A stretch of DNA of 29,717 nt from a virus (taxonomy: Duplodnaviria; Caudoviricetes). Under the pieces are notes generated by a model. The model did not search any database. It was not told the origin of the DNA and saw only the letters and a list, made by a program, of their open reading frames with translations. Positions 4,395 through 28,533 of the stretch are shown piece after piece (within the stretch, counting starts at the first letter, position 1; each line of letters starts with the position of its first letter). The position numbers and the translations under genes are program-made. The DNA is taken from positions 1 to 29,717 of the IMG/VR virus record IMGVR_UViG_3300048848_000285; one strand, 5' to 3'.

Positions 4395-4592
4395 ATGATC
4401 AACTTCATCAACAATCATGCAAGCGAGGTGTGGACCTCCGTAGTTTCGTTGATCGCAGGGTTTGCTGGCGGGTCCCTCGTGACATTACGTATTACGCGCA
4501 GCAACTCGGCGAGCGGCTCCGGCCAGGTAGTGAACCAAAGCCGATCCCGAGTTGGAGGCGATCAGATAGTCGGGGATAAGTACCGCCGGTGA
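4395..4592 (+). CDS. Small membrane protein (65 aa) with C-terminal motif shared with LmuA
   Basis: G-rich RBS-like stretch; hydrophobic VWTSVVSLIAGFAGGSLVTL; tail NQSRSRVGGDQIVGDKY; GTGA overlap with the next gene. Confidence 0.7.
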   Translation: MINFINNHASEVWTSVVSLIAGFAGGSLVTLRITRSNSASGSGQVVNQSRSRVGGDQIVGDKYRR

Positions 4593-4708
4593 ACCGTCTA
4601 CCGGCACCCGGAGGTGACCGCCTCCCGGCGGGGAGTTACCCTGCGCTTGGTGACATCGACCAGAGCCGATCCAAGGTCTCCGGCGACCAAGTCATAGGCG
4701 GGAAGTAC
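4533..4708 (+). repeat. Diverged 51-bp / 17-aa direct repeat (4533-4583 and 4658-4708) lying in two different genes
   Basis: NQSRSRVGGDQIVGDKY vs DQSRSKVSGDQVIGGKY, 11/17 identical. Confidence 0.9.
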
Positions 4709-5224
4709 CACGCGGGAGGGGACATCAATCTTACGACGGTAAACAGCGCTTCCCGGCAGGCGACCGTGCTGGAGCAACTGCTCGTGCGGCTCCATGAGGA
4801 GGTTGAGGGCAGGATTCACTGCCAAGACACTGTAGCTAAGTTACGGCGGTACCAAGGAGGCTCACGTTCAGACGATGTGATTGGGCTCGCTGCTAAGCTG
4901 CAGCGATCGGGGCGAGAGACGCACATCGATGACGCTTTAGAGCAAAAGGAAATGTTCTCTAAACTACTTGAAAGCTGGTCACTGTACGCTTCAGCTCAAG
5001 AGATATTCGTTCATCTTCTTGCTCGTGCTGAACATCTCTTTAAAAGTGAAATACACCCGGACGTAGGGCAGCTTTCAGTATCGGATGTCAATAGGTTGAT
5101 TAACAATCGGATAGTCGACCCGGTTGTTTTTGAGTGTGGTGCCACAATGCTTCAGATTGACCACTTGACCGCGATGGGCATGGTGTATTGGCTCGCAGAA
5201 CAATGCTTTATCCGGTGGCACTGA
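4589..5224 (+). CDS. lmuA: ABC-three-component/Lamassu CTD protein (LmuA-like) with no recognisable enzymatic effector
   Basis: GLAAKLQRSGR...SAQEIF and terminal GMVYWLAEQCFIRWH typical of ABC-3C C-terminal domains; precedes the middle component and SMC-like ATPase. Confidence 0.75.
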   Translation: MNRLPAPGGDRLPAGSYPALGDIDQSRSKVSGDQVIGGKYHAGGDINLTTVNSASRQATVLEQLLVRLHEEVEGRIHCQDTVAKLRRYQGGSRSDDVIGLAAKLQRSGRETHIDDALEQKEMFSKLLESWSLYASAQEIFVHLLARAEHLFKSEIHPDVGQLSVSDVNRLINNRIVDPVVFECGATMLQIDHLTAMGMVYWLAEQCFIRWH

Positions 5225-5225
5225 C

Positions 5226-5741
5226 GTGCTGACCTTTCAGCCTGCACTTGATCCCTTTCACGCGGTATTCCGATCCTTTCGGCTTCTCACCGCGTTGGAG
5301 GAATGTTCGCCGATTGAATGGGATAAGTACCGAGTACTCGATTTCTACCTCGCATTCCCATTCCGGGCCGCGGATTTCAAATTTCCAAAAGGGCAGACTG
5401 CTTTTCGGAAAGTCGCTAAAGCAATGGAATGGATGAGGCCCTATGGTGGTTTGCCGGACGATCAGGATCTCGTCGTCCGGATGGAGCCTGTGCAAAGTGC
5501 CGCCGTCCAGACACTGGCGAGCCTCGGCTACCTCGATCAGGACGCTCTCAAGGGCGGTGCGGTCGACTGGGGTGTCCGGCCCCTGCCGGATCTTCTGAAA
5601 GCTCGAATTCAAGAAGTGAATGGTGAACAGGCCGACCTAATGGTCATGTTATCCAGCCTTTGCTTGAGTGTTCCGTTGCTCGGACAGGACGGGATCAAAC
5701 GGAGGAGTGGCCTCTTGGAATACCGCAATGACGCTATTTAA
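5226..5741 (+). CDS. lmuC: ABC-three-component middle component (LmuC-like)
   Basis: MLTFQPALDPFHAVFR start, LDFYLAFP and GIKRRSGLLEYR; size and position between the CTD gene and the ATPase. Confidence 0.75.
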   Translation: MLTFQPALDPFHAVFRSFRLLTALEECSPIEWDKYRVLDFYLAFPFRAADFKFPKGQTAFRKVAKAMEWMRPYGGLPDDQDLVVRMEPVQSAAVQTLASLGYLDQDALKGGAVDWGVRPLPDLLKARIQEVNGEQADLMVMLSSLCLSVPLLGQDGIKRRSGLLEYRNDAI

Positions 5742-7641
5742 GCCGACGCTGATGGTCGAGCGCATGCTGGTCGAGCGGGACTCGCAGAGCGTGTACGATG
5801 AGATGTTCCACCGTGGTCTGAATGTTGTTCGTGGTGACAATTCGTCAGGAAAATCTACCGTCCTCAATTTTCTTTATTACGGGCTTGGGGGAGACTTGAC
5901 GGATTGGAGCGAGGCGGCGCGTTTGTGCTCCCGTGTTCTTCTGCAGGTGAACATCAATGGAGACACCGCTACCCTAGCGAGGGATGTCACCACAAAGGCT
6001 CGTCCCGCCATGGACATCTTCGCGGGTACGATTGACGATGCGCTTGAAGCTCCTGCGGCGAGGTGGCTTCGGTTTGGATATACCCGCTCCGAAAAGCGAG
6101 AGAGCTTTTCGCAGGCTCTCTTCAGACTCATGGATGTCCCAGAGGTTGCTACCGATCAGTCCGGGAATATCACGATGAATCAGCTTCTCCGCATCTTGTA
6201 TGCGGACCAGCTGAGTCCGGTGGAGACGATTTTAAAGTTCCAAGGAACTTTCGACAACGGTGACCTGCGCGATGCTATAGGGCGGCTGGTATTCGGCGCA
6301 CACTCTATTAAGTTCTATCAAAATGAGCAGGAACTGCGCAGGCTCGACAAAGACCTAGACCAAGTCATCGGTGAGTATCGCAGCCTGCTACACTTTGCCG
6401 GTGAAGCGGGGGAGGGCTTCACCTACGAGTTCCTGCAAGCAGAGCGATCGCGGCTGGAGAGGCTAGCCGCGGACCTTGCGGATCAGGTCCTTTCCATTGA
6501 AAGGTCTGGCGGTGCCGCTTCTGAGGATCAGCCCACTCTGCGCGGGCAAGAGCAAGCTTATGCAGCGGTTGTTTCTGCCCAGACTGCGTTAGCGGACGCA
6601 ATAGGTGAGCGAGACCAGCTAGCCCTTAAGATAGCAGACTCCGACAGATACCTAAAGGCTTTGAGGAACAAGCTCGAATCCCTACAAGACTCATCGATGG
6701 TCGCGGACGTCATAGGTGATGTTTCGTTCAGAGAGTGCCCTGCTTGTCATGCTGTGGTTGAGGAGCCCGACATCCCCCACGCGTGCTACCTCTGCAAAGA
6801 ACCTTTTGATGAGGGGCACGAGCGTGGTCGTATCATTCGACTGATGAACGAGACTGCGCTGCAAATTAACCAGTCCGAGGGTCTTCAGCGCCGCCGTATG
6901 GAGAGGGCGGGCAGTATAGATGAGGAGATTTCCCGTCTAACAAAGCTATGGCGGTCGGCGGCGCAACGTTATCAATCATCCGCGCGATCACCGACGACTG
7001 AAAGCCAGCTGCGCCTTCGGGAGCTTGTCCGGGAGTCGGGCTACGTCTCGCGCCAGCTTGATGAGCTATCCCGCCGAGAGAAATGGGCGGAGCGGCTTTT
7101 GATGCTCGCAGAGCGACGCGAGGAAATATCAGCGCGTATGGCTGGTTTACGAGCGGAGAACGAAGCGCTGGAGCGTGAGCAGCAGCACCGCCTAAACGTG
7201 GCCGCAACCGTTACCTCTGAAGAGGTGAAGGAGCTGCTCAGAAACGATCTGCGACGGCAGGACGTGTTTGAAGATCCCCGTTCGGTTAAGTTCAGCTTTC
7301 GTGATAACATCATATCGGTAAACGACGAAAACTACTTCTCCGCGAGCTCACGTGCTATCCTGAAAAGCAGCCTAACCCTTGGCTTGCTAGCGGCATCTAC
7401 AAAGTTAGAGTTTATGAGGCATCCACGTTTCTGCATGATAGACTCTCATGAAAATATGGGAATGGAGCCTGTTAGGAGTCACAACTTCCAGGAGCAGGTG
7501 CTTCGAGTTTCTCGGGAGAGCAAAGTGGAACACCAGATTGTTATAGGTACCGCGATGATCGCTCCAGAGTTAGATAGCGATGAGTTCACCGTAGGTCGGC
7601 ACTATACACGTGACCAGCCAGCGTTGGCGCTCCGCCTCTAA
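5728..7641 (+). CDS. lmuB: SMC/Rad50-like ABC ATPase (LmuB-like), 637 aa
   Basis: Walker A GDNSSGKST, long coiled coils, central CPAC...CYLC hook, degenerate signature FSASS, Walker B-like CMIDSHE. Confidence 0.85.
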   Translation: MTLFKPTLMVERMLVERDSQSVYDEMFHRGLNVVRGDNSSGKSTVLNFLYYGLGGDLTDWSEAARLCSRVLLQVNINGDTATLARDVTTKARPAMDIFAGTIDDALEAPAARWLRFGYTRSEKRESFSQALFRLMDVPEVATDQSGNITMNQLLRILYADQLSPVETILKFQGTFDNGDLRDAIGRLVFGAHSIKFYQNEQELRRLDKDLDQVIGEYRSLLHFAGEAGEGFTYEFLQAERSRLERLAADLADQVLSIERSGGAASEDQPTLRGQEQAYAAVVSAQTALADAIGERDQLALKIADSDRYLKALRNKLESLQDSSMVADVIGDVSFRECPACHAVVEEPDIPHACYLCKEPFDEGHERGRIIRLMNETALQINQSEGLQRRRMERAGSIDEEISRLTKLWRSAAQRYQSSARSPTTESQLRLRELVRESGYVSRQLDELSRREKWAERLLMLAERREEISARMAGLRAENEALEREQQHRLNVAATVTSEEVKELLRNDLRRQDVFEDPRSVKFSFRDNIISVNDENYFSASSRAILKSSLTLGLLAASTKLEFMRHPRFCMIDSHENMGMEPVRSHNFQEQVLRVSRESKVEHQIVIGTAMIAPELDSDEFTVGRHYTRDQPALALRL

Positions 7642-7679
7642 AGCACGCGGTGCTGAGTGATTGCAGAAGGGCAGTCGGG

Positions 7680-8417
7680 ATGTCTCCAACCTTTTTCGAT
7701 CCTGACGATCCCGAACTGCAGGATCGGGTGGCGAAAGCGATTTACGATACCCAAGTGGGTGATGCGCGCGAGAGGCTCGCCAAGTTCGACTTTCAGCTGC
7801 AGCGCGTTAGAAGCGTATTTGACGTGATGCATGCTGAAACGGATCGATCAGCATCGATATTGATATTTGCCCTAGCCGAAGACTTGATGCTTCATGCGTT
7901 ACAGCACAACATGCCCGGGGAGTGCCCAGGAGGATGGAAATCGGCGACGTCGGGCAACGGAGTCCTTGCTTCCGCAAACGATCGTATCTCCATCCTCGAA
8001 CTTCTGCGATGGATAACACCGCAGTCCGGTTCGCAAATACGCCTTCTCAAAGACATACGTAACAGGTTTGCGCATCATTCAGACGTCAGCGGCTTCGGAG
8101 ATCAGAAGATCCGTGGATGGATATCAAGCATGCTTCCGCTTGAAGCGCCGATTATAGAGATGCTAGCGAAAACTGAAGAAGACAAAGCTGTCAAGCCAAA
8201 GCCCCGTGATTTATTCGTTGTAAGATCGGCGCTGGTAGTCACCCGATTAATTAGCGACTTTGCTGTGCTTCCGGCAGCACAGGCCCGGCGTGTGTCACCC
8301 AATGACGTAATAGGCGGTGGCGATTTCGACAGGCTTCCTGAAGAAATCAAAGAACTCCGTCGTATTGCCGCCGACGTCGCTCTCCGGGTTCTTGGGCCAA
8401 CAGGTTGGCGACGGTAA
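7680..8417 (+). CDS. MtlR-like / HEPN-superfamily protein
   Basis: ETDRSASILIFALAEDL and IRNRFAH (RxxxxH). Confidence 0.7.
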   Translation: MSPTFFDPDDPELQDRVAKAIYDTQVGDARERLAKFDFQLQRVRSVFDVMHAETDRSASILIFALAEDLMLHALQHNMPGECPGGWKSATSGNGVLASANDRISILELLRWITPQSGSQIRLLKDIRNRFAHHSDVSGFGDQKIRGWISSMLPLEAPIIEMLAKTEEDKAVKPKPRDLFVVRSALVVTRLISDFAVLPAAQARRVSPNDVIGGGDFDRLPEEIKELRRIAADVALRVLGPTGWRR

Positions 8418-18376: not shown

Positions 18377-19912
18377 ATGCCGACCTTACGATGGTTGACG
18401 AGGGACGATGACATCAGGGCTGCCGCGCATGTGCCCTACCGCCTGCTGGAGGAAGTCCCCGATCTCGGTCACGGCGATCGTGATAGCGTCAACATGCTTG
18501 TCCAGGGTGACAATCTCGATGCCCTAAAGGCGCTGCTGCCTTTCTATGCCGGGCAGGTGAAGTGTATCTATATCGACCCGCCCTATAACACCCGGTCGGC
18601 CTTCGAGCATTACGATGACAATCTGGAGCACAGCCAGTGGCTGGCGATGATCTGGCCGCGGCTGGTATTGCTGCGCGAGCTGCTGGCGGAAGATGGCAGT
18701 ATCTGGGTCAGCATCGACGATAATGAGGGTCATTACCTCAAGGTCGTGATGGACGAGGTGTTCGGGCGGCAGAATTTTATCGACACCGTTATTTGGAGGA
18801 AAAACTATTCTCCGAAATCAAGCGCGCGGCATTTCTCAGCGGACCATGATTATATCATAGTCTACGGTAAAAACTCCGACCGCTTTGTTCCAAATCTCAT
18901 GCCGCGCACCGAGAAGCAGGACCGCGCTTACAAGAACCCTGACAACGATGCTCGGGGGCCATGGAAAACCAGCGATCTATCTGCTCGCAATTTTTATAGC
19001 CTCGGTAAATATCCGATCACGTCGCCATCAGGTCGAGTGATCGCGGGACCTCCCGGTGGAAACTACTGGCGCGTTTCGGAGGAGAGGTTCTGGGAACTGG
19101 ACCGAGACAATCGAATATGGTGGGGAGCTAAGGGCGATGCCATACCCCAGATCAAGCGTTTCCTTTCGGAGGTAAAGCAGGGAGTAACGCCCCAGACCTT
19201 CTGGCCATACGAAGAGGTCGGTCACACACAAGACGCGAAGAAGGAGATACTCGCTCTCTTCGGGTCGGATGTATTTGGTACACCCAAGCCTGAACGGCTC
19301 ATGCAGCGTGTAATTCATATCGCGACCAACCCTGGCGATCTCGTGTTGGACAGCTTCCTCGGCTCCGGCACGACGGCGGCGGTCGCGCATAAGATGGGCC
19401 GTCGCTACATCGGTATCGAGATGGGCGATCATGCCGCGACTCATTGCCAGCCGCGCCTCAAGAAGGTCGTGGACGGCGAACAAGGGGGCATCTCCGAGGC
19501 GGTGAACTGGCAGGGCGGCGGCGGCTTTCGCTATTTCCGGCTGGGTGCGTCTGTGTACGACGAGAATGGGCAGATAAGTCCGGACATCGAGTTTGCGGTG
19601 CTAGCTGCGCATGTGTGGTTCTCCGAGACGCAGCAACCGTGGTCCCGGCCCGATCGGCTTTCGCCCGTTCTCGGCGTCCATGAGGGGCAGGCCTATGCTC
19701 TGCTCTACAACGGCATTTTGGGGGACAAGTCGGTGAGCGGCGGGAATGTGCTGACCCGCAAGACGCTGGCGGTGATCCGCGCTGCGTTGCCGGAGGGCTT
19801 CGCCGGGCCCGTCACTGTCTATGGCGAACGATCCGCGCTGTCTGACACTACGCGGGGGAGGGAGCAGATCAGCTTCAAGCAGACCCCCTATGACGTGAAG
19901 GCGCGGGCGTAA
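18377..19912 (+). CDS. mod: Type III R-M methyltransferase Mod
   Basis: YIDPPY, TPKPE, LDSFLGSGTT; 1-nt overlap with res. Confidence 0.93.
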   Translation: MPTLRWLTRDDDIRAAAHVPYRLLEEVPDLGHGDRDSVNMLVQGDNLDALKALLPFYAGQVKCIYIDPPYNTRSAFEHYDDNLEHSQWLAMIWPRLVLLRELLAEDGSIWVSIDDNEGHYLKVVMDEVFGRQNFIDTVIWRKNYSPKSSARHFSADHDYIIVYGKNSDRFVPNLMPRTEKQDRAYKNPDNDARGPWKTSDLSARNFYSLGKYPITSPSGRVIAGPPGGNYWRVSEERFWELDRDNRIWWGAKGDAIPQIKRFLSEVKQGVTPQTFWPYEEVGHTQDAKKEILALFGSDVFGTPKPERLMQRVIHIATNPGDLVLDSFLGSGTTAAVAHKMGRRYIGIEMGDHAATHCQPRLKKVVDGEQGGISEAVNWQGGGGFRYFRLGASVYDENGQISPDIEFAVLAAHVWFSETQQPWSRPDRLSPVLGVHEGQAYALLYNGILGDKSVSGGNVLTRKTLAVIRAALPEGFAGPVTVYGERSALSDTTRGREQISFKQTPYDVKARA

Positions 19913-22551
19913 TGGAACTCAAGACCTATCAGACGCAGACGCTCAACACGCTGCGGCGCTTTTTCGAGAAGGCTCGCGTGCAAGGCCCCGGCGCGGCGTA
20001 TGACGCCATAGTCGCGGAGCCGGAGATGGCGGCGCGCCTCAAGGGCTTTGCTGGGCATTACAAGGCGCCAAACGGGCTGGACGAGACGCCCTATGTCTGC
20101 CTGCGACTGCCGACCGGCGGCGGCAAAACGGTGCTGGCGGCCCATGCGGTGAACATTGCCAAGGAAACTTGGGTCGAACGTGATTTCCCACTGGTGCTGT
20201 GGCTGGTGCCCTCCACCACGATCCGCAAGCAGACGGTGGACGCGCTTAAGAACTCACGGCACCCCTATCGTGCCGCGCTCGACGATGCCTTCGCGGGGCG
20301 CGTCCGTGTGTTCGACATCGGCGACTTTACCCAGCTTCTGCCGCACGATTTGTTATCCAACTGCTGCGTCGTGGTCGCCACGATCCAGGCCCTGCGGGTA
20401 AAGGACACCGAAGGCCGCAAGGTCTATGCCCACCACGAGATGCTGGAACCGCATTTCACCGGCGTCCCTGACAAGATGCCGGGGCTGGAACTGATCGAGG
20501 ACGGCAGGGGTGCGGGGACGATCAAATTCTCTTTCGCCAATTTGATGCACCTGTATCGCCCGCTGATGATCGTGGACGAGGCGCACAAGGCCGTCACCGG
20601 CCTGTCCCGCGAGATGCAGAGTCGGGTGAACCCGACTGCGATCATCGAGTTCACCGCCACCCCGCGCTCCAACTCCAACATCCTGCACTCGGTCTCCGCC
20701 CAGGAGTTGAAGGACGAGGAGATGATCAAGCTACCGGTCATGCTCTCCGAGCATCAGACATGGCAGGCGGCCGTTACCGGCGCGATATCCAAACGGGCCG
20801 AGCTTGCCGAGGATGCGCGACGGGAGCGCGACTATATTCGTCCACTCGTCCTGTTCCAGGCCCAGAACAAGGATGAGGAAGTTACTGTAGCGGCCCTGAA
20901 GCAACATCTAATGGACGTGGAGGGCATCGACGCGCATCGCATCGCCGTTGCCACCGGCGATCAGCGTGAACTCGACGGCATCCACCTCTTCGACCCGGGC
21001 TGCGAGATTGATTTCATCATCACGGTGGAGGCGCTGAAAGAAGGCTGGGACTGCTCCTTCGCCTATGTCTTCTGTTCGGTCGCCAACATCCATAGCGCGA
21101 CAGACGCGGAGCAGCTTCTAGGGCGAGTGCTGCGAATGCCGTATGCCCGCAAGCGTTCGGTCCCCTCACTGAACCGCGCCTATGCCAATCTGACCTCCAA
21201 ATCCTTCTCGGACGCCGCGAACGCGTTGAAGGACCGGCTCGTCTCGATGGGGTTCGAGGAAAGCGAAGCCGAGGACAATATCCTGCCCGAACAGCTTGAC
21301 CTCAATGAAGGGTTGTTCGGCCATGTCCGCCGGGCGAAGCCGAGCCTGACCACGACCATCGCCGTCGAGCCTACAGCGCTGAAAGGGCTGGAAGCGGCGG
21401 CGCCCTCCAAGGTGCGAGTGACCGCCGGGTCCGACGGTAGGACCGTGGTCAAGATCACCGGCTTCCTCAGCCCAGCCGAGAAGGAGAAGTTCTTGGCGGC
21501 CCTGCCCGACGTGGAAGCCACCAGCTTACGAGAAGAGGTCGCGAGCTATGAGGCGGAGCATCAGCGCGACGCCTCACCGGCGGACCGGGGGGAGACGTTC
21601 ACCGTCCCGGCGCTGATGACATGGGTTCAAGGCGAGCTCGAACTGGCCGACAGCGACATCCTAATGGAATATCACGACTGGTCGCTCGCAGATCATTCAC
21701 CCAGGCTGGAGGCCAAGGACTTCGCCATTCAGGCGTCGACTGACACCTTTGAGATCGACGTCGACCGGCAGCGGCTGTTCGTGAAGCACGCAGACCAGAG
21801 CGCCCAACTTCTCCTCGACATCCCCGTTGAGGGTTGGAGCGAACAGACGCTCGTGCTGTTCCTAGACCGGCAGGTGCGGGACAAGTTCATCGGCCAGGGC
21901 GAGCTCGTCCGCTGGCTGACTGAACTGGTCAACTACCTGACCGGCCCCCGCAACATTCCGCTGTCGGCGCTCATGCAATGCAAATACCCGCTCGCGCGAA
22001 AGGTTAAGGAACGGATCGCGGAAATCCGCGCCAAAGAGCGCGAGCACGTCTATCAGCGGTCACTGTTCGCGCCGCAGGCCAAGCCGGAAATCTCCTTCGA
22101 CAATGGATTTGTCTTTGCCGACGACATGTTCGCGGGTGTCCGCACCTATCGCGGCTCCTATCGCTTCTCCAAGCACTTCACCGGCTGGGATCAGGTCGCG
22201 GCTTTCGACGGAGCTGAGGATGGGGAGGAATTGAACTGCGCTAAGGTGATCGACAGCCTGCCGCAGGTCAGGCACTGGATCAGGAACGTCCCCCGCCACT
22301 CGCAAGCGTTCTGGCTGCCGACCGCCTCGGGCCGGTTCTATCCGGACTTCGTGGCCGACCTGACCGATGGCCGGATAATGATCGTGGAGTACAAGGGCGC
22401 GCACCTGGCAGACGCCGCCGACACCGACGAAAAGCGGGCGATCGGCGCGCTGTGGGAGAAGGCCAGCGGCGGCAAGGGACTGTTCCTTATGGCCGAGAAG
22501 CAAGCGAGCGGGAAGGACGTGCGTGCGCAGTTGCTCGCCAAGGTGGGCTGA
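19912..22551 (+). CDS. res: Type III restriction subunit Res
   Basis: PTGGGKT, DEAH, FTAT, LKEGWD, QLLGRVLR, C-terminal YPDF...VEYKG nuclease motif. Confidence 0.92.
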   Translation: MELKTYQTQTLNTLRRFFEKARVQGPGAAYDAIVAEPEMAARLKGFAGHYKAPNGLDETPYVCLRLPTGGGKTVLAAHAVNIAKETWVERDFPLVLWLVPSTTIRKQTVDALKNSRHPYRAALDDAFAGRVRVFDIGDFTQLLPHDLLSNCCVVVATIQALRVKDTEGRKVYAHHEMLEPHFTGVPDKMPGLELIEDGRGAGTIKFSFANLMHLYRPLMIVDEAHKAVTGLSREMQSRVNPTAIIEFTATPRSNSNILHSVSAQELKDEEMIKLPVMLSEHQTWQAAVTGAISKRAELAEDARRERDYIRPLVLFQAQNKDEEVTVAALKQHLMDVEGIDAHRIAVATGDQRELDGIHLFDPGCEIDFIITVEALKEGWDCSFAYVFCSVANIHSATDAEQLLGRVLRMPYARKRSVPSLNRAYANLTSKSFSDAANALKDRLVSMGFEESEAEDNILPEQLDLNEGLFGHVRRAKPSLTTTIAVEPTALKGLEAAAPSKVRVTAGSDGRTVVKITGFLSPAEKEKFLAALPDVEATSLREEVASYEAEHQRDASPADRGETFTVPALMTWVQGELELADSDILMEYHDWSLADHSPRLEAKDFAIQASTDTFEIDVDRQRLFVKHADQSAQLLLDIPVEGWSEQTLVLFLDRQVRDKFIGQGELVRWLTELVNYLTGPRNIPLSALMQCKYPLARKVKERIAEIRAKEREHVYQRSLFAPQAKPEISFDNGFVFADDMFAGVRTYRGSYRFSKHFTGWDQVAAFDGAEDGEELNCAKVIDSLPQVRHWIRNVPRHSQAFWLPTASGRFYPDFVADLTDGRIMIVEYKGAHLADAADTDEKRAIGALWEKASGGKGLFLMAEKQASGKDVRAQLLAKVG

Positions 22552-22603: not shown

Positions 22604-22788
22604 GAGATAAAGCCCTTTCTTCGGCCGATTGAAGGCTCTGATAAGTGAGTGTTATCGCTGGTTAGAAGCCAGGAGGTGAAGACTTAGCTTTCTTTTGACC
22701 GGCGTCCGATATGCATTGACGTTACGCCCCTTTTCGTTGATCCACGTTGCGGCAGTCAGTGAGGGGGGCCGCGAAAGCGGTACTGGCT

Positions 22789-23766
22789 ATGGAGATTGAG
22801 CGCGAAAGCCTCGATGCAGTTTTGCATCAGCTTTATCAGGACATCGATGCGTACGGGCATCCACATGCCGGGTCGCGGGGCGAAACGCTTGAACTGCTGG
22901 GCGTGACGCTCCGAATTACCAATCCGCGAGCCAGGATCAGCCGCTCGGAGAACCGCGGCAAGCCCTTCAGCGCGCTGGGCGAGCTGCTCTGGTATTTGTC
23001 CGGTCGGGATAAGCTGGAATTCATCAAGCCCTATGTGTCGGAATACGAGAAGGAGGCCGTTGGTGGCATTCTCGAAGGTGCCTACGGGCCTCGGCTTCTG
23101 GCTATGCGCGGATCGATCGACCAATTAAAAAGCATCGAGACGCTGCTCCGGAGGAAGCCCGGTTCGCGGCGCGCGGTGGTGCAATTGTTCAACGCTGAGG
23201 ACATCGCCACCGATCACGTCGAAGTCCCCTGCACAACTACGCTGCAGTTCCACCAACGTGAGGGACGACTGCACATGTCGGTTACGCTTCGGTCCAACGA
23301 CGCATATTGGGGGCTCCCTCACGACGTGTTCTGCTTCACGATGATCCAGGAGATGATGGCTGGACGTCTCGGCGTTGAACTTGGCGAATACCATCACTTC
23401 GTCGGCAGCATGCACGTTTACAACGACCACCTTGCGGACATGAGGGCCTATCTCGACGAAGGCTTCCAGCAAGTTCACGCAATGCCGGCAATGCCCGAAG
23501 GAGACCCGTTCGACATCGTGGATAGCCTGCTGGCCGTCGAAGCAAGGTTGCGTGTCGGCGACCTGATCGAACCAGAGGAGGTGATGAGCGACCCCTATTG
23601 GTCGGATATCGTCCGGCTGCTGCAGGTGTTCTGGTCACGCAAACACGCCACCAACGTAGAGGACCACGTGCGGCGGCTGAACGGAATTCGCGCGCAACTA
23701 GTGTCGCCATCCTATGGGCCTTATGTCGACGGCAGGAAGGATCTGTCGATCCGCGCACGCGCCTAG
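22789..23766 (+). CDS. Thymidylate synthase / pyrimidine hydroxymethylase family protein
   Basis: GELLWYLSG, AYGPR, SRRA, catalytic PC, RSNDAYWGLPHD, GSMHVY. Confidence 0.88.
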   Translation: MEIERESLDAVLHQLYQDIDAYGHPHAGSRGETLELLGVTLRITNPRARISRSENRGKPFSALGELLWYLSGRDKLEFIKPYVSEYEKEAVGGILEGAYGPRLLAMRGSIDQLKSIETLLRRKPGSRRAVVQLFNAEDIATDHVEVPCTTTLQFHQREGRLHMSVTLRSNDAYWGLPHDVFCFTMIQEMMAGRLGVELGEYHHFVGSMHVYNDHLADMRAYLDEGFQQVHAMPAMPEGDPFDIVDSLLAVEARLRVGDLIEPEEVMSDPYWSDIVRLLQVFWSRKHATNVEDHVRRLNGIRAQLVSPSYGPYVDGRKDLSIRARA

Positions 23767-23797
23767 GCCAACTTTACACCATCGGAGAGCTAAATAG

Positions 23798-24712
23798 ATG
23801 TGGCCAACTAGGGATGCGGAACGCCAGCGCATCACAACCGAACTCACGGCAGCAGTAGGACCACTTGGTCTATCCGGGCTCCCGAACCAGGCGACGATCG
23901 ATACGCTGGCGCTCCAGTTCGTAGCGAGCTTGCGTCGCGAGGACTACTATAAGGTCGTTCAGAGAAAGCGGGTATCTGCCGCGCGCGCCGATCCCAACAG
24001 TCCTGCGTTCGACGCCGAACGCGCGGTCGCTTACCACATGCAGCAGGGCAACGTCGACGAGGCCGGCTGGCTTATCTTCCTGATGACCTACTTCGCCCGA
24101 CCAACAGACACCAAGTGGCAGCGCCTGCAGGACGTCTACGGCCGCCTTGGCAGCGGCGTATGGGATTGGGCGACGGTCAACGCTAACCCTGCCGCATTCT
24201 ATAATTGGATCGATGCAAACTGGCGACAGATCCGCGGCAAATTCGGCAACCATCGGAAATACAACAGCCTGAACCCCAACGCTGCCAACCCGATGCACAT
24301 GACAGTGGGCGACTATTTGACCTGGATCGGTCCGGCCGGGCATGCGGCGTTCTTCGCGAACGCTGTGCGCGCGGCCGGCAACCACCCACACACGATCTAC
24401 GATCACCTCTTCAGCAGGATGAAGGTGCTAACCTTCGCCCGCCTGGGCAAGTTCGACTACCTCTCGCTGGTCGGGCGCTACGGCTTGGCGCCGATCTCGG
24501 CGGGCTCGGCCTATCTCAAGGGAGCGACCGGTCCCCAGAGCGGCGCGCGGCTCCTCGTTGACGGGTCACGGAGCAGCGCCACGTCGCTGGCTGCCCTTCA
24601 GGGGACGCTCGACGCGCTCGACGGGCGGCTGAACGTGGGAATGGCCGTGATGGAGGATGCGCTCTGCAACTGGCAGAAGAGCCCGGCGAGGTTCGTGCAC
24701 TACCTCGGTTAG
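23798..24712 (+). CDS. Alpha-glutamyl/putrescinyl-thymine pyrophosphorylase clade 3-like protein
   Basis: FGNHRKY, FARLGKFDYL, YLKGATGP..GARLL, MEDALCNWQKSP recalled as family motifs; adjacent to a TS homologue. Confidence 0.7.
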   Translation: MWPTRDAERQRITTELTAAVGPLGLSGLPNQATIDTLALQFVASLRREDYYKVVQRKRVSAARADPNSPAFDAERAVAYHMQQGNVDEAGWLIFLMTYFARPTDTKWQRLQDVYGRLGSGVWDWATVNANPAAFYNWIDANWRQIRGKFGNHRKYNSLNPNAANPMHMTVGDYLTWIGPAGHAAFFANAVRAAGNHPHTIYDHLFSRMKVLTFARLGKFDYLSLVGRYGLAPISAGSAYLKGATGPQSGARLLVDGSRSSATSLAALQGTLDALDGRLNVGMAVMEDALCNWQKSPARFVHYLG

Positions 24713-25860
24713 TCGAGCAGCGCCCGCAGCTCGTCCCAGCGCCAGTGGCGCTTCAGGTAGTTCATTTGATGCGGCATTATCATGCCGCGGTGTTGCATCT
24801 GCCCCACGGTCAGCCCTGGCGCAACCTGCGCCTTCACACTGAACCGGATTACCTCGTCCTTCGCCGCGTAAAGGCGCTCAAATTCCTGTTCGCTATTCTC
24901 CGGAATGATGCAGCGAGATGCGAACTCGTTGGCCTCGCGCTCCATCTGATCCTCATGCCCCGCGCCGATGTCACCATCGACGAAGGTCTGCGCGCCATGG
25001 CGTACGACATGGCCGAGCTCGTGGAAGACAGTGAACCAGAAGCGGTCGTCAGACAGACCACGAAAGCTTAGAAGGATCATCGCCTTGTCGGACGCGACCA
25101 TCCGGCTCGCGCCGGACGCGCGGCAACCCTCCGGGGCGCGCTGCGCAACGACGGCGACACCCACCTCGGCGCAGAGCGTCTTGAGCTTGGGAAGGAACCG
25201 GTCCGGCTGACGGACTAGCGACAGCCTCCTGATCGCTTCCATTCGGTCCACCAGATTGTCCACATGGAGCGGCTTCGTGGCCACGAGGTCGGCGCCGAGC
25301 TCGCCTCGGCGAAGCCACATCAGCACCGCGCCGTCGTCCGACGTGAACGCATGCGTCGTGCGGAAGAGCGTCTCCGACCGTATTCGCCCGTAACGGGTCT
25401 CCCATGCCGCCAAGGTTCCCACATTGAAGAACGCTAGGCGTCGTCGCACCTCTGCCCGTCGCGTGTCTTCTGACATCCGCCCGCGGGGCCGGGGCCCGGG
25501 AACGGGAATGAGTAGCCAATCGTCGGCTTCGGTCGCCACCGCGCGATCGACTGCGCGCTCCAGCGCACCCTCGTAGTTCTCCTGTCGCTTCAGCCAGAAC
25601 GAGCTGGAGCCCCCGAGTACCGCGGCCAACGCGCCCGCTTGCTCCCGTCCAATCGCGACGGAGCCGTCGAGTAGGCCTCTCAAGGTTGCCACCCCGCCGG
25701 GCAACCTGTCTGCAACCACCTGTGGCGGCACGCCCCGACGTTGCATCAGAGCGCGCAGCGAGTCCCCAGGCTTCGAGAACCAGTCCGGCTTGAACCCCAG
25801 CACCTCCGTCAAGGCAGCCTCGCGACTTCCACTAGCTTCAACCTCGTCACCGTTTCCCAA
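24709..25860 (-). CDS. HigA-like HTH fused to ImmA/IrrE metallopeptidase
   Basis: PDWFSKPGDSL + HTH, FWLKRQENY, FWFTVFHELGH (HExxH), EREANEFA; start uncertain. Confidence 0.85.
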   Translation of the reverse strand: MGNGDEVEASGSREAALTEVLGFKPDWFSKPGDSLRALMQRRGVPPQVVADRLPGGVATLRGLLDGSVAIGREQAGALAAVLGGSSSFWLKRQENYEGALERAVDRAVATEADDWLLIPVPGPRPRGRMSEDTRRAEVRRRLAFFNVGTLAAWETRYGRIRSETLFRTTHAFTSDDGAVLMWLRRGELGADLVATKPLHVDNLVDRMEAIRRLSLVRQPDRFLPKLKTLCAEVGVAVVAQRAPEGCRASGASRMVASDKAMILLSFRGLSDDRFWFTVFHELGHVVRHGAQTFVDGDIGAGHEDQMEREANEFASRCIIPENSEQEFERLYAAKDEVIRFSVKAQVAPGLTVGQMQHRGMIMPHQMNYLKRHWRWDELRALLD

Positions 25861-26135
25861 AGAACGCTTCCGTCATCAGACCGATTAAACCGGGTTCCGA
25901 CGGGCACAAGCGCCGCGCGATACCCTGCACCAATCGGCACCTGAAGGGAAACGCCCTCCTGGATTATTATGCCGCCGTGCAGGTCGAGCAACTCTTGCGC
26001 GTTCTCCAGCGCTAGCGCGTCAGAGATCAGCGTTACTAAATCCTCTGCCTCCACACGACCATAGAGCCGCTCCGCACGGTCGAGGTCGGTGCACGCGTCG
26101 TGAACCCGCTGATCTTCGAACGACAGCGTGATCAA
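25809..26135 (-). CDS. HigB/RelE-like small protein
   Basis: LSFEDQRVHDAC...AERLYG...; directly upstream of and overlapping the HigA-ImmA gene. Confidence 0.6.
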   Translation of the reverse strand: MITLSFEDQRVHDACTDLDRAERLYGRVEAEDLVTLISDALALENAQELLDLHGGIIIQEGVSLQVPIGAGYRAALVPVGTRFNRSDDGSVLWETVTRLKLVEVARLP

Positions 26136-26193
26136 GGGAAGGCCGCTCCCTCATGCTTCGAGCTCCCGTAGGGTGCAACGGACCTCGGCGCGA

Positions 26194-26565
26194 TCATTCC
26201 GGTAGCGGTGATCCGTGGGGCTTTGCCCGCTGCTTGGCCCGGATCACATCAATCCGCTCCCAGTTACGTTCCAGTTCGCGGTCGCCCGCTTTGTCCATGT
26301 TGATGTCTGACGCGCTGCACAGGCTGGCGAGCGTCACCATCACGCCGCCCACCTCCTGTTCGGGGAGGCCCTGCGGCCGACCAAATACGTACTCGACTAG
26401 AGCGTGGGCGTCGTCGCGGGAACAGCCGTTGGCCTGAGCCAACTCAAGCGCCTCCTCAAGGAACCGGTGCGTGCGCTCACCACGATCGGCCCTAACATCT
26501 GCAGGGAAGCAGGCCTCCAGCCAATGTTCTACCCGCCGCTGATAGGAGGTCACCTCCGATGACAT
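26194..26565 (-). CDS. MazG-like all-alpha NTP pyrophosphatase-family protein
   Basis: RFLEEALELAQA...EQEVGGVMVTL (EExxE ... ExG pattern). Confidence 0.6.
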   Translation of the reverse strand: MSSEVTSYQRRVEHWLEACFPADVRADRGERTHRFLEEALELAQANGCSRDDAHALVEYVFGRPQGLPEQEVGGVMVTLASLCSASDINMDKAGDRELERNWERIDVIRAKQRAKPHGSPLPE

Positions 26566-27987: not shown

Positions 27988-28533
27988 TCAGCCCAGCTTC
28001 AGCTCCTGCCGGACGTAGGCTTCAGCCAAACGCTCGTTGTGATCTGCGATGAGATCGGGCGTCAGCTTGTGCAGCGTCATCAAGCGCGCTTCAGCCTCTT
28101 CATGGCTTTCCAGCGTGCCGTCGTGCCGAATGTGCGCGACCCGGACATCCGGCAGGTCGTGGAGGTGACGGGCGATCAGCGAGAAGCGATGACATTGCAG
28201 CGGATCACGCTCCGCACATAAGAGGGCGGGTCTGCATTGGGCGGCTATCGCTAGTATGTCGTCGATCGCCATGGTGAAGGCTTCGGTCCCACGCCTCGCT
28301 GCATAGTCGGTGGGGCCGCTTACCGGCATTCCGCCCAGAGCATCGCCCATATGGATGTAGCTAACGCCGATCCGGTTCAGGCTGACCCGCAGTTGCGGCT
28401 TGTTGAAATGCTGCCAGCGTGACCGGGGCAATGATCGCACGTCGATAACGCAGCCGATGCCGAACTGATCGAGGGCGTATGCGAACTCGTCCCAGCCGCT
28501 ATTTGAGTGCCCCACGCTCATCACATCAATCAT
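27988..28533 (-). CDS. DUF488 family protein
   Basis: SVGHSN, IDVRSLPRSR, LGG, ALLCAERDPLQCHR, HI. Confidence 0.88.
   Translation of the reverse strand: MIDVMSVGHSNSGWDEFAYALDQFGIGCVIDVRSLPRSRWQHFNKPQLRVSLNRIGVSYIHMGDALGGMPVSGPTDYAARRGTEAFTMAIDDILAIAAQCRPALLCAERDPLQCHRFSLIARHLHDLPDVRVAHIRHDGTLESHEEAEARLMTLHKLTPDLIADHNERLAEAYVRQELKLG

Follow-up and report, generated by a model that had tools for sequence, protein, structure and literature searches.

The window analyzed here, a 29.7-kb provirus record of the Caudoviricetes (IMG/VR record IMGVR_UViG_3300048848_000285, positions 1 to 29,717), carries at 22789..26565 two convergent operons that together form a gene module. Its core consists of four genes, encoding a thymidylate synthase (TS)-like protein, a clade-3 aGPT-Pplase (aGPT-Pplase3), a HigA-type helix-turn-helix (HTH) protein fused to an M78 (ImmA/IrrE) zinc peptidase (HigA-M78), and a HigB-like protein; a further, MazG-like gene is optional. 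The module is real, well conserved, and uncharacterized, uniting known families in a combination that is undescribed or at most computationally noted. Defense of some kind is its likely role, in keeping with an earlier note made from the DNA letters alone, which had proposed a candidate defense module. As to mechanism, we tentatively favor a reading, plausible if short of probable, in which infection-driven 5-hydroxymethyl-dC (hm-dC) enters replicating DNA, aGPT-Pplase3 attacks the 5-hydroxymethylcytosine (hmC), and HigA-M78 aborts the infection.

All five open reading frames (ORFs) and their strands were confirmed in the window, as was the arrangement that the earlier note had described, a two-gene operon whose end overlaps a convergent three-gene run by 4 nt. 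The forward operon encodes the TS-like protein, a predicted dCMP 5-hydroxymethylase (22789..23766, +; 325 aa from ATG; Pfam TS, E 3.9e-27), and aGPT-Pplase3 (23798..24712, +; 304 aa; PF18746, E 2.6e-123). The opposing run encodes the MazG-like protein, an accessory and a candidate all-alpha NTP pyrophosphatase (26194..26565, -; 123 aa), the HigB-like protein, a predicted inhibitor of HigA-M78 (25809..26135, -; 108 aa), and HigA-M78 itself, a predicted toxic effector (24709..25860, -; Peptidase_M78, E 1.4e-11). The stop codons of aGPT-Pplase3 and HigA-M78 overlap in the sequence TTAG (24709-24712), and the likely start of HigA-M78 is a TTG at 25812, which overlaps the HigB-like stop as TTGA and yields 367 aa, as in many homologs. 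The family assignments of the earlier note also held, those of the TS, aGPT-Pplase3, and M78 through Pfam and those of the HigB-like and, more weakly, the MazG-like protein through indirect profile tests. About 75 nt 5' of the TS start, a TTGAC picked out by eye (22716..22720, +) is a weak candidate for a -35 element of the TS-aGPT operon, and it recurs at that distance in more than 12 of the closest homologs among 45 upstream regions inspected by eye. A consensus promoter scan upstream of the TS returned no site, and a search for a conserved operator upstream of the TS and MazG-like genes returned nothing beyond TTGAC and clade-specific similarity.

Conservation, linkage, and mobility of the module

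With aGPT-Pplase3 as the bait, 78 genome loci and 22 viral-contig loci (100 loci) were collected, and partners were counted in searches with profiles built from these same loci. The TS, HigA-M78, and HigB-like genes are present in 72, 73, and 69 of the genome loci and in 22, 21, and 19 of the viral-contig loci, respectively, with several of the misses falling at contig ends. Gene order and orientation are identical in most of the 100 loci, and the stop-to-stop gap between the convergent operons is at most 30 nt in 85 of 94 loci and exactly -4 in 28 of the 94. Linkage of the genes is far beyond chance; the locus counts themselves are not independent, because near duplicates are present (e.g., L093/L094, L099/L100, and L098/L101) and the bait favors near relatives. 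The five-gene module of the earlier note therefore stands for four linked genes, its MazG-like member occurring in 37 of 100 loci only (31 genome and 6 viral). Across 87 loci, pairwise identities of the three long proteins correlate (Spearman 0.81-0.85) and their trees have 21-24 of 27 well-supported splits in common; the two convergent operons are therefore inherited as one unit.

Hosts include Acidobacteriota, Bacteroidota, and Verrucomicrobiota-type metagenome-assembled genomes as well as actinobacterial plasmids. The aGPT-Pplase3 family occurs in 2 of 401 Alphaproteobacteria, one of them the seed genome, and is absent at E<=1 from the 50,697 phage records searched. It is found on 10 plasmids, and the three plasmid regions viewed, two of them in Actinomycetota, all have the TS, aGPT, convergent ImmA order. 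In 57 of 67 loci, the GC content of the module is lower than that of its flanks. The module is sporadic and mobile.

The TS-like protein is a predicted dCMP 5-hydroxymethylase

The best match of the TS-like protein in the PDB is MilA (5b6d, E 1.2e-39; best ThyA, 9e-22), and alignment to MilA (5jnh numbering) pairs R127 with K133, E145 with D152, C148 with C155, S169 with A176, and D179 with D186. C148, R168, S169, N170, D171, D179, H209, and Y211 are invariant in all 94 TS copies of the loci, position 145 is acidic in 84 of them, and position 127 holds R in 65 copies and K in 27. An Asp at ThyA position 177 is dCMP-specific, an acid at 143 is hydroxymethylating, and D169N is hydroxylating (PMC13326640), while the double change A176S/K133R converts MilA from CMP to dCMP (PMC5175136). 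The window TS carries the complete dCMP-hydroxymethylase signature (C148, D179, E145, D171, S169, and R127), and the Asn found at ThyA 177 in dUMP-specific TS is replaced by Asp (D179) in 94 of 94 copies. We therefore predict that the enzyme is a dCMP 5-hydroxymethylase making 5-hydroxymethyl-dCMP (hm-dCMP), and that the modified base is a cytosine rather than a thymine, because the TS is closest to MilA and bears this signature. A modified pyrimidine, as put forward in the earlier note, is supported in this way, with thymine hypermodification giving way to the predicted cytosine derivative.

A housekeeping role is not indicated: the window TS scores below the NCBIfam equivalog cutoff for ThyA in 8 of 8 models, and a separate ThyA is present in 5 of 5 host genomes checked. 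Identity as a 5-hydroxy-dCMP synthase was rejected, the D169N signature being absent and D171 present in 94 of 94 copies. MilA and the T4 dCMP hydroxymethylase offer a close comparison, MilA as the nearest solved relative, with the Cys, the Asp specificity residue, and the acidic water-access residue in common. They differ from the window TS in that MilA has Ala176 and Lys133 where the window TS has Ser and Arg, the very change that turns MilA to dCMP (PMC5175136), in that MilA is an antibiotic-pathway enzyme whereas the window TS lies outside any antibiotic cluster, and in that the module has no T4-like kinase or polymerase. A related TS without its phage kinase gave trace incorporation only (PMC13326640).

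aGPT-Pplase3 retains a Glu/Cys motif and has a short C-terminus

The hidden Markov model check that the earlier note had proposed for aGPT-Pplase3 gave a full-length match to PF18746 (411 bits against a cutoff of 25, model positions 2-279 of 279). The protein also matches the ADDT family PF18724 (E 3.9e-70), whose model is matched end to end by both aGPT-Pplase3 and the phage protein M6 gp51. The motif ED(A/S)(L/M)CNW is present in 99 of 100 locus copies, and in the window its form EDALCNW (E286 and C290) aligns to ETVLCKW of M6 gp51 (E243 and C247), so that a catalytic-type Glu stands four residues before the Cys, as in clade 2, in 99 of 100 copies. Both residues are essential in clade-2 aGPT-Pplase (PMC8989533), and the structure of PUGT places a metal, bound by E243 and T244, at O4 of the thymine, with C247 attacking C6 (PMC11472151). 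Other motifs of aGPT-Pplase3 align to the Arg-rich DNA-binding loop and the FGPW helix of PUGT.

Beyond the Cys, the two clades part. The phosphate-release pocket of PUGT is lined by K261, D262, and E265 (PMC11472151), which correspond to Cys+14, +15, and +18, and the latter two lie past the C-terminus of clade 3. In 94 of 99 locus copies and 120 of 120 matches listed, the clade-3 protein has 14 residues beyond the Cys, whereas clade-2 chains extend 33-71 residues past it (seven proteins, of which three were truncated by the limits of the retrieved sequence). Judged by sequence, the C-terminal part of this pocket is therefore missing, though other segments could substitute for it. Next to the Glu, aGPT-Pplase3 has an Asp (D287) where clade 2 has Thr, and D287 may serve to recognize the amine of cytosine, mirroring the change in the TS. 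We infer that clade 3 has shifted from phosphorylated 5-hydroxymethyluracil (phospho-hmU) to unphosphorylated hmC as its substrate. Enzymes that attack C6 can dehydrate or deaminate hmC or C without a phosphate, as in cytosine methyltransferase chemistry.

The module brings no kinase of its own. As the earlier note had observed, no kinase is visible in the window, and a Pfam scan found no such domain among its 33 ORFs; M6 gp54 and gp55, used as markers of the 5-hmdU DNA kinase, have no tblastn match in the loci. A genome-wide search with PF18748 gave 0 of 5 hosts, but its positive controls gave no signal either. Within 1.5 kb of 94 modules lie 22 Walker-A ORFs, 21 of them judged by motif and size only. 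A dNMP kinase was rejected as part of the module, since the one kinase-like gene, in locus L041, belongs to a neighboring prophage, where lysis genes lie next to it, and was not counted for that reason. At that site (L041:10406-11225), the prophage end with the dNMP-kinase-like gene adjoins a module that retains just a MazG-like remnant.

One of the closest known counterparts is phage thymidine hypermodification (M6 gp51 and PaMx11 gp46, PUGT; PMC8989533 and PMC11472151), which likewise joins a TS-family hydroxymethylase to an ADDT-family protein with the Glu and Cys. There, however, the M6 TS has N at the position of window D179, making it dUMP-type rather than dCMP-type, a 5-hmdU DNA kinase is present, Thr takes the place of the Asp, and at least 33 residues follow the Cys instead of 14. 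Unlike the phage enzymes, those of the module are linked to the HigA-M78/HigB-like pair. Clade-3 proteins are numerous (2,487 matches among 8,000 scored candidates). Five of the genes in the bait-derived loci stand apart from the module, mostly in Acidobacteriota and amid unrelated metabolic genes; the C-terminus is longer in two of the five, and in one the examined ORF has no Cys motif.

The HigA-M78/HigB-like pair

The HigA-M78 profile aligns to HigA (4mct_A, E 1e-11) and weakly to CapP (7t5t, E 0.006), and the HExxH motif is kept in 93 of 94 copies. Its best PADLOC match is PD-Lambda-2_B (E 3.4e-19). The HigB-like and MazG-like proteins have no match in Pfam, NCBIfam, or PADLOC. The HigB-like protein leads to a cluster in which 12% of the members carry PF05015 (atlas lead 0.89), and its profile aligns to the protein P0161 (hhalign probability 99.6), which in turn aligns to HigB of P. 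vulgaris (4mct_B, E 0.024). By this bridge, and hence indirectly, profile comparison indicates that the HigB-like protein is homologous to HigB. In HigB mRNases, the His of HxLxG and the C-terminal YH are catalytic. P0161 carries HPLKGDR and DYH, whereas HxLxG and the C-terminal (D/N)YH are found in 0 of 89 module copies; both motifs occur in 3 of 78 search matches (P0161, P0186, and P0187).

In PD-lambda-2, the HigA-peptidase fusion (PD-lambda-2B) is toxic and a HigB-like partner rescues (PMC9519451). That system resembles the present pair in placing a HigB-like gene upstream of a HigA-HTH and M78 peptidase fusion with HExxH, and it differs in that the pair here is tied to nucleotide-modifying enzymes. 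Because the RNase motifs are lacking in 89 of 89 copies and PD-lambda-2 sets a precedent, the roles are probably inverted as in that system, HigA-M78 being best read, by analogy, as the effector and the HigB-like protein as a dead toxin that inhibits it. The earlier note had cast the pair as a toxin-antitoxin (TA)-like backup, a view that does not fit the loss of the RNase motifs, nor the co-inheritance of the pair with the TS and aGPT enzymes.

Accessory genes

MazG-like and Nudix genes never co-occur, the latter being found in 7 genome loci and 1 viral locus (8/100). The usual metal-binding motif of MazG is EExxE ... ExxD; in the MazG-like protein, EExxE and the second E are invariant in 16 of 16 sequences, and G stands where MazG usually has D. 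Its profile matches the pyrophosphatase 4qgp at E 0.006, weaker support than the HigB-like bridge. The domain is frequent in longer proteins (3,048 matches among 8,000 scored) and is present in two PHROG families; among the 120 longer relatives listed, 6 are named NTP pyrophosphatase and 5 have a Lar domain. The window gene is a stand-alone copy of a domain that many longer proteins, probably of phages, contain at ~60% identity, in some cases alongside a Lar restriction-alleviation domain; it may have been captured from phages or serve as a decoy. As for the pool sanitizing suggested in the earlier note, the candidate pyrophosphatase might just as well act as a source of dCMP for the TS-like enzyme.

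Between the TS and aGPT-Pplase3 genes, 15 genome and 4 viral loci (19/100) have a gene for a 266-aa protein (e.g., L048:7129-7929), and all 4 viral-contig copies sit within the module. Its predicted structure (pLDDT 89.7) matches 4zby in Foldseek (E 3e-5) and superposes on 1l9g with a Z score of 12.7 and a root mean square deviation of 3.4 over 179 aligned residues; on the evidence of this model, the protein has a uracil-DNA-glycosylase (UDG) fold. The family is unannotated and has no Pfam match, and is a candidate hmC or hmU glycosylase. Sequence searches of the PDB with the aGPT-Pplase3, HigB-like, and UDG-fold profiles returned nothing significant. DUF4031 is present in 8 genome and 3 viral loci (11/100), mostly upstream in the TS operon (e.g., L056:6845-7150), a first hint of functional context for this family, and Mrr in 6 genome loci and 1 viral locus (7/100). 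The recurrent accessories (MazG-like, Nudix, UDG-fold, Mrr, and DUF4031) are all nucleotide- or DNA-handling or uncharacterized.

Genomic neighborhood and comparison with known systems

A sample of 28 was drawn from the 56 loci whose flanks were complete, and the nearest long ORFs of these 28 (111 ORFs) were scanned with PADLOC, with no background control. Matches at E<=1e-20 lie near 9 of the 28 loci, a weaker match near 1, and none near 18. The matched systems are Gabija (two loci), type I restriction-modification (R-M), ZacAB, PDC systems, and generic ATPase, kinase, and Fic domains; in the window itself, a Lamassu-like ABC-three-component (ABC-3C) system and a type III R-M system accompany the module. 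The neighborhood gives moderate support to defense.

Among systems with related parts, DS-4 (NTTI) is a validated defense that contains a TS (PMC13092281). Besides the TS, which carries N at the specificity position, it comprises a dNMP kinase, HMUDK-helical, TIR, and one further gene (PMC13092281); on gene content and this residue, DS-4 was rejected as the same system. The same source shows, in Fig. 6F, an aGPT-Pplase system predicted by DefensePredictor, with none of its domains validated and a legend that also lists HTH, UDG, and NMAD (PMC13092281). That system may be the present module; the term aGPT-Pplase is absent from the 10 supplements of PMC13092281 that were searched. Brig1, Brig3-BapA, and Dag direct glycosylase folds against modified bases, and the optional gene of the module is alike in fold (PMC11078745, PMC13160076, and 10.1101/2025.10.29.685425). 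Modified cytosines are excised by Brig1 and Brig3, both of them UDG-fold glycosylases, and hmC is unmasked by BapA (PMC11078745 and PMC13160076); these systems target phage-made modifications and have no TS. BapA was also rejected as an identity for aGPT-Pplase3, as it is of the ASCH type. Literature searches, which did not extend to the papers defining clade 3 and conflict systems centered on nucleotides (Iyer 2013 and Burroughs 2015), returned no paper that describes this gene set, and no match for "aGPT-Pplase3" as a term.

Proposed mechanism and alternatives

During infection, dCMP becomes available, in many cases along with a broad dNMP kinase. In the mechanism we favor, the TS-like enzyme, whose dCMP-type hydroxymethylase active site is seen in the sequence, would turn dCMP into hm-dCMP, and because the module has neither a dNMP kinase nor a DNA kinase, this product would need outside help to reach DNA. 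In the uninfected cell, dCMP would be scarce and host kinases would pass hm-dCMP poorly, with little incorporation as a result, and MazG-like or Nudix proteins, where present, might clear stray hm-dCTP or supply dCMP from dCTP. Phage-driven DNA breakdown would raise dCMP, and a phage dNMP kinase would complete hm-dCTP, so that hmC would appear mainly in DNA under replication. There, Cys290 could attack C6 of a flipped-out hmC with no phosphate as leaving group. The outcome would be a covalent adduct or else a lesion, such as hmU formed by deamination, to be excised by the UDG-fold glycosylase where it is present. The adduct or damage would then release HigA-M78, as a trigger-sensitive effector of the CapP/IrrE type, and the infection would abort, a step modeled on PD-lambda-2 and on such peptidases. 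DNA is the probable site of action in this scheme because a DNA-acting covalent enzyme is accompanied by an optional glycosylase and Mrr.

Several observations weigh against this mechanism or against defense more generally. Only the 9 of 28 sampled loci have a PADLOC match nearby, some of these being generic domains, and PADLOC models match neither the TS, aGPT-Pplase3, the HigB-like protein, nor the MazG-like protein. Similarity to PD-lambda-2B is partial (residues 227-358), no counterpart of PD-lambda-2C is found among the recurrent gene clusters, and component A has no PADLOC match. Direct profile alignment of clade 3 to clade 2 is weak (hhalign probability 28%, E 6e-4), and since the comparison is at the level of sequence, the pocket argument comes down to one motif and chain length. 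The only link between the two operons is their co-inheritance, which does not prove coupling. Five aGPT-Pplase3 genes (L065, L066, L076, L078, and L079) occur without the module, and the UDG-fold gene is absent from the window.

The same enzymes can be given other tasks. If hm-dCMP or a derivative accumulated on infection and were detected in free form, by either aGPT-Pplase3 or the HigB-like/HigA-M78 complex, with MazG or Nudix erasing the basal signal and DNA left unmodified, then no kinase would be needed and the interchangeability of MazG-like and Nudix genes would suit a signal eraser. A modified nucleotide is reportedly the signal in Kongming, and DS-4 pairs its TS with a TIR effector. 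We nevertheless hold such a second messenger to be somewhat unlikely, as aGPT-Pplase3 retains the covalent-catalysis Cys together with motifs aligning to the Arg-rich loop and FGPW helix of PUGT, and the UDG-fold and Mrr accessories act on DNA. Another possibility is an attack on phages that arrive with modified cytosine, aGPT-Pplase3 stripping or trapping glucosyl-hmC or other C5 adducts in a BapA-like role and UDG-fold or Mrr proteins cutting the DNA; the excision of modified cytosines by Brig1 and Brig3, the unmasking of hmC by BapA, and the UDG fold of the accessory would all agree. This account is very unlikely, leaving unexplained why 94 of 100 loci keep a TS that is catalytically intact, relying on a glycosylase present in 19 of 100 only, and likening aGPT-Pplase3 to an unrelated ASCH-domain protein.

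Self-marking, for which the earlier note also allowed, would mean that a hypermodified cytosine is a constitutive feature of host DNA, serving as a self mark or as a shield, while the HigBA-like pair did no more than stabilize the mobile element. Both enzymes do belong to DNA-modifying families and look intact, and the module is mobile, but the idea is poorly supported and highly improbable: it has no conserved restriction partner (R-M in 0/78 and Mrr in 6/78 genome loci) and no kinase to feed the dNTP pool, and the pair is co-inherited, where exchange would be expected of a generic addiction module. It is unlikely, too, that the module drains dCTP, with MazG or Nudix and the TS trapping the dC pool as dead-end hm-dCMP, or serves outside defense in stress response, element maintenance, or MilA-like antimetabolite synthesis. 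Such roles could draw on the nearest solved relative being an antibiotic-pathway enzyme and on the 18 of 28 sampled loci without a defense-like neighbor; S169 and R127, however, indicate dCMP rather than CMP, tailoring or export genes do not recur, and a drain leaves aGPT-Pplase3 unexplained.

Returning to attack on hmC in replicating DNA, a more specific version is possible but doubtful: a host-made, phage-style base would be written into replicating phage DNA through the invader's own dCMP flux and kinase, and the kinase-independent clade-3 aGPT-Pplase would be a covalent reader tripping a protease held by a dead HigB. If true, this would amount to a mark-then-attack immunity that inverts the logic of R-M, and would provide a first function for clade-3 aGPT-Pplases. 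If the predictions for the module are right, a host-made modified cytosine would join the nucleotide-based immune strategies, and the module would offer an enzyme that might bond covalently to hmC in DNA with no need for it to be phosphorylated first, a property of possible use in hmC labeling. The module in any case gives the clade-3 aGPT-Pplase a defined set of partners and residue-level predictions, namely, a dCMP substrate, no phosphate leaving group, and a dead HigB.

Remainder of the window

The left part of the window contains an integrase, a repressor, Lamassu-like ABC-3C genes, a terminase, and a portal gene, and the right part a serine recombinase, the type III R-M system, the four-gene module with its MazG-like gene, and a tyrosine recombinase. 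The module thus belongs to cargo placed between the serine and tyrosine recombinases. The type III R-M system that the earlier note had seen next to it is complete (Mod/Res, 18377-22551, +; PADLOC E 8e-196 and 8e-178) and ends 237 nt 5' of the TS start. It was rejected as part of the module, because type III Mod and Res are linked in 0 of 78 genome loci. The ABC-3C/Lamassu-like system (CTD9, MC5, and an LmuB-like ATPase) lies at 4589-7641 (+), beside the prophage repressor, and is followed by a 255-aa ORF without a family match (7650-8417). At 27988-28533 (-), a DUF488 protein matches the PADLOC candidate PDC-M45B (E 1.5e-42).

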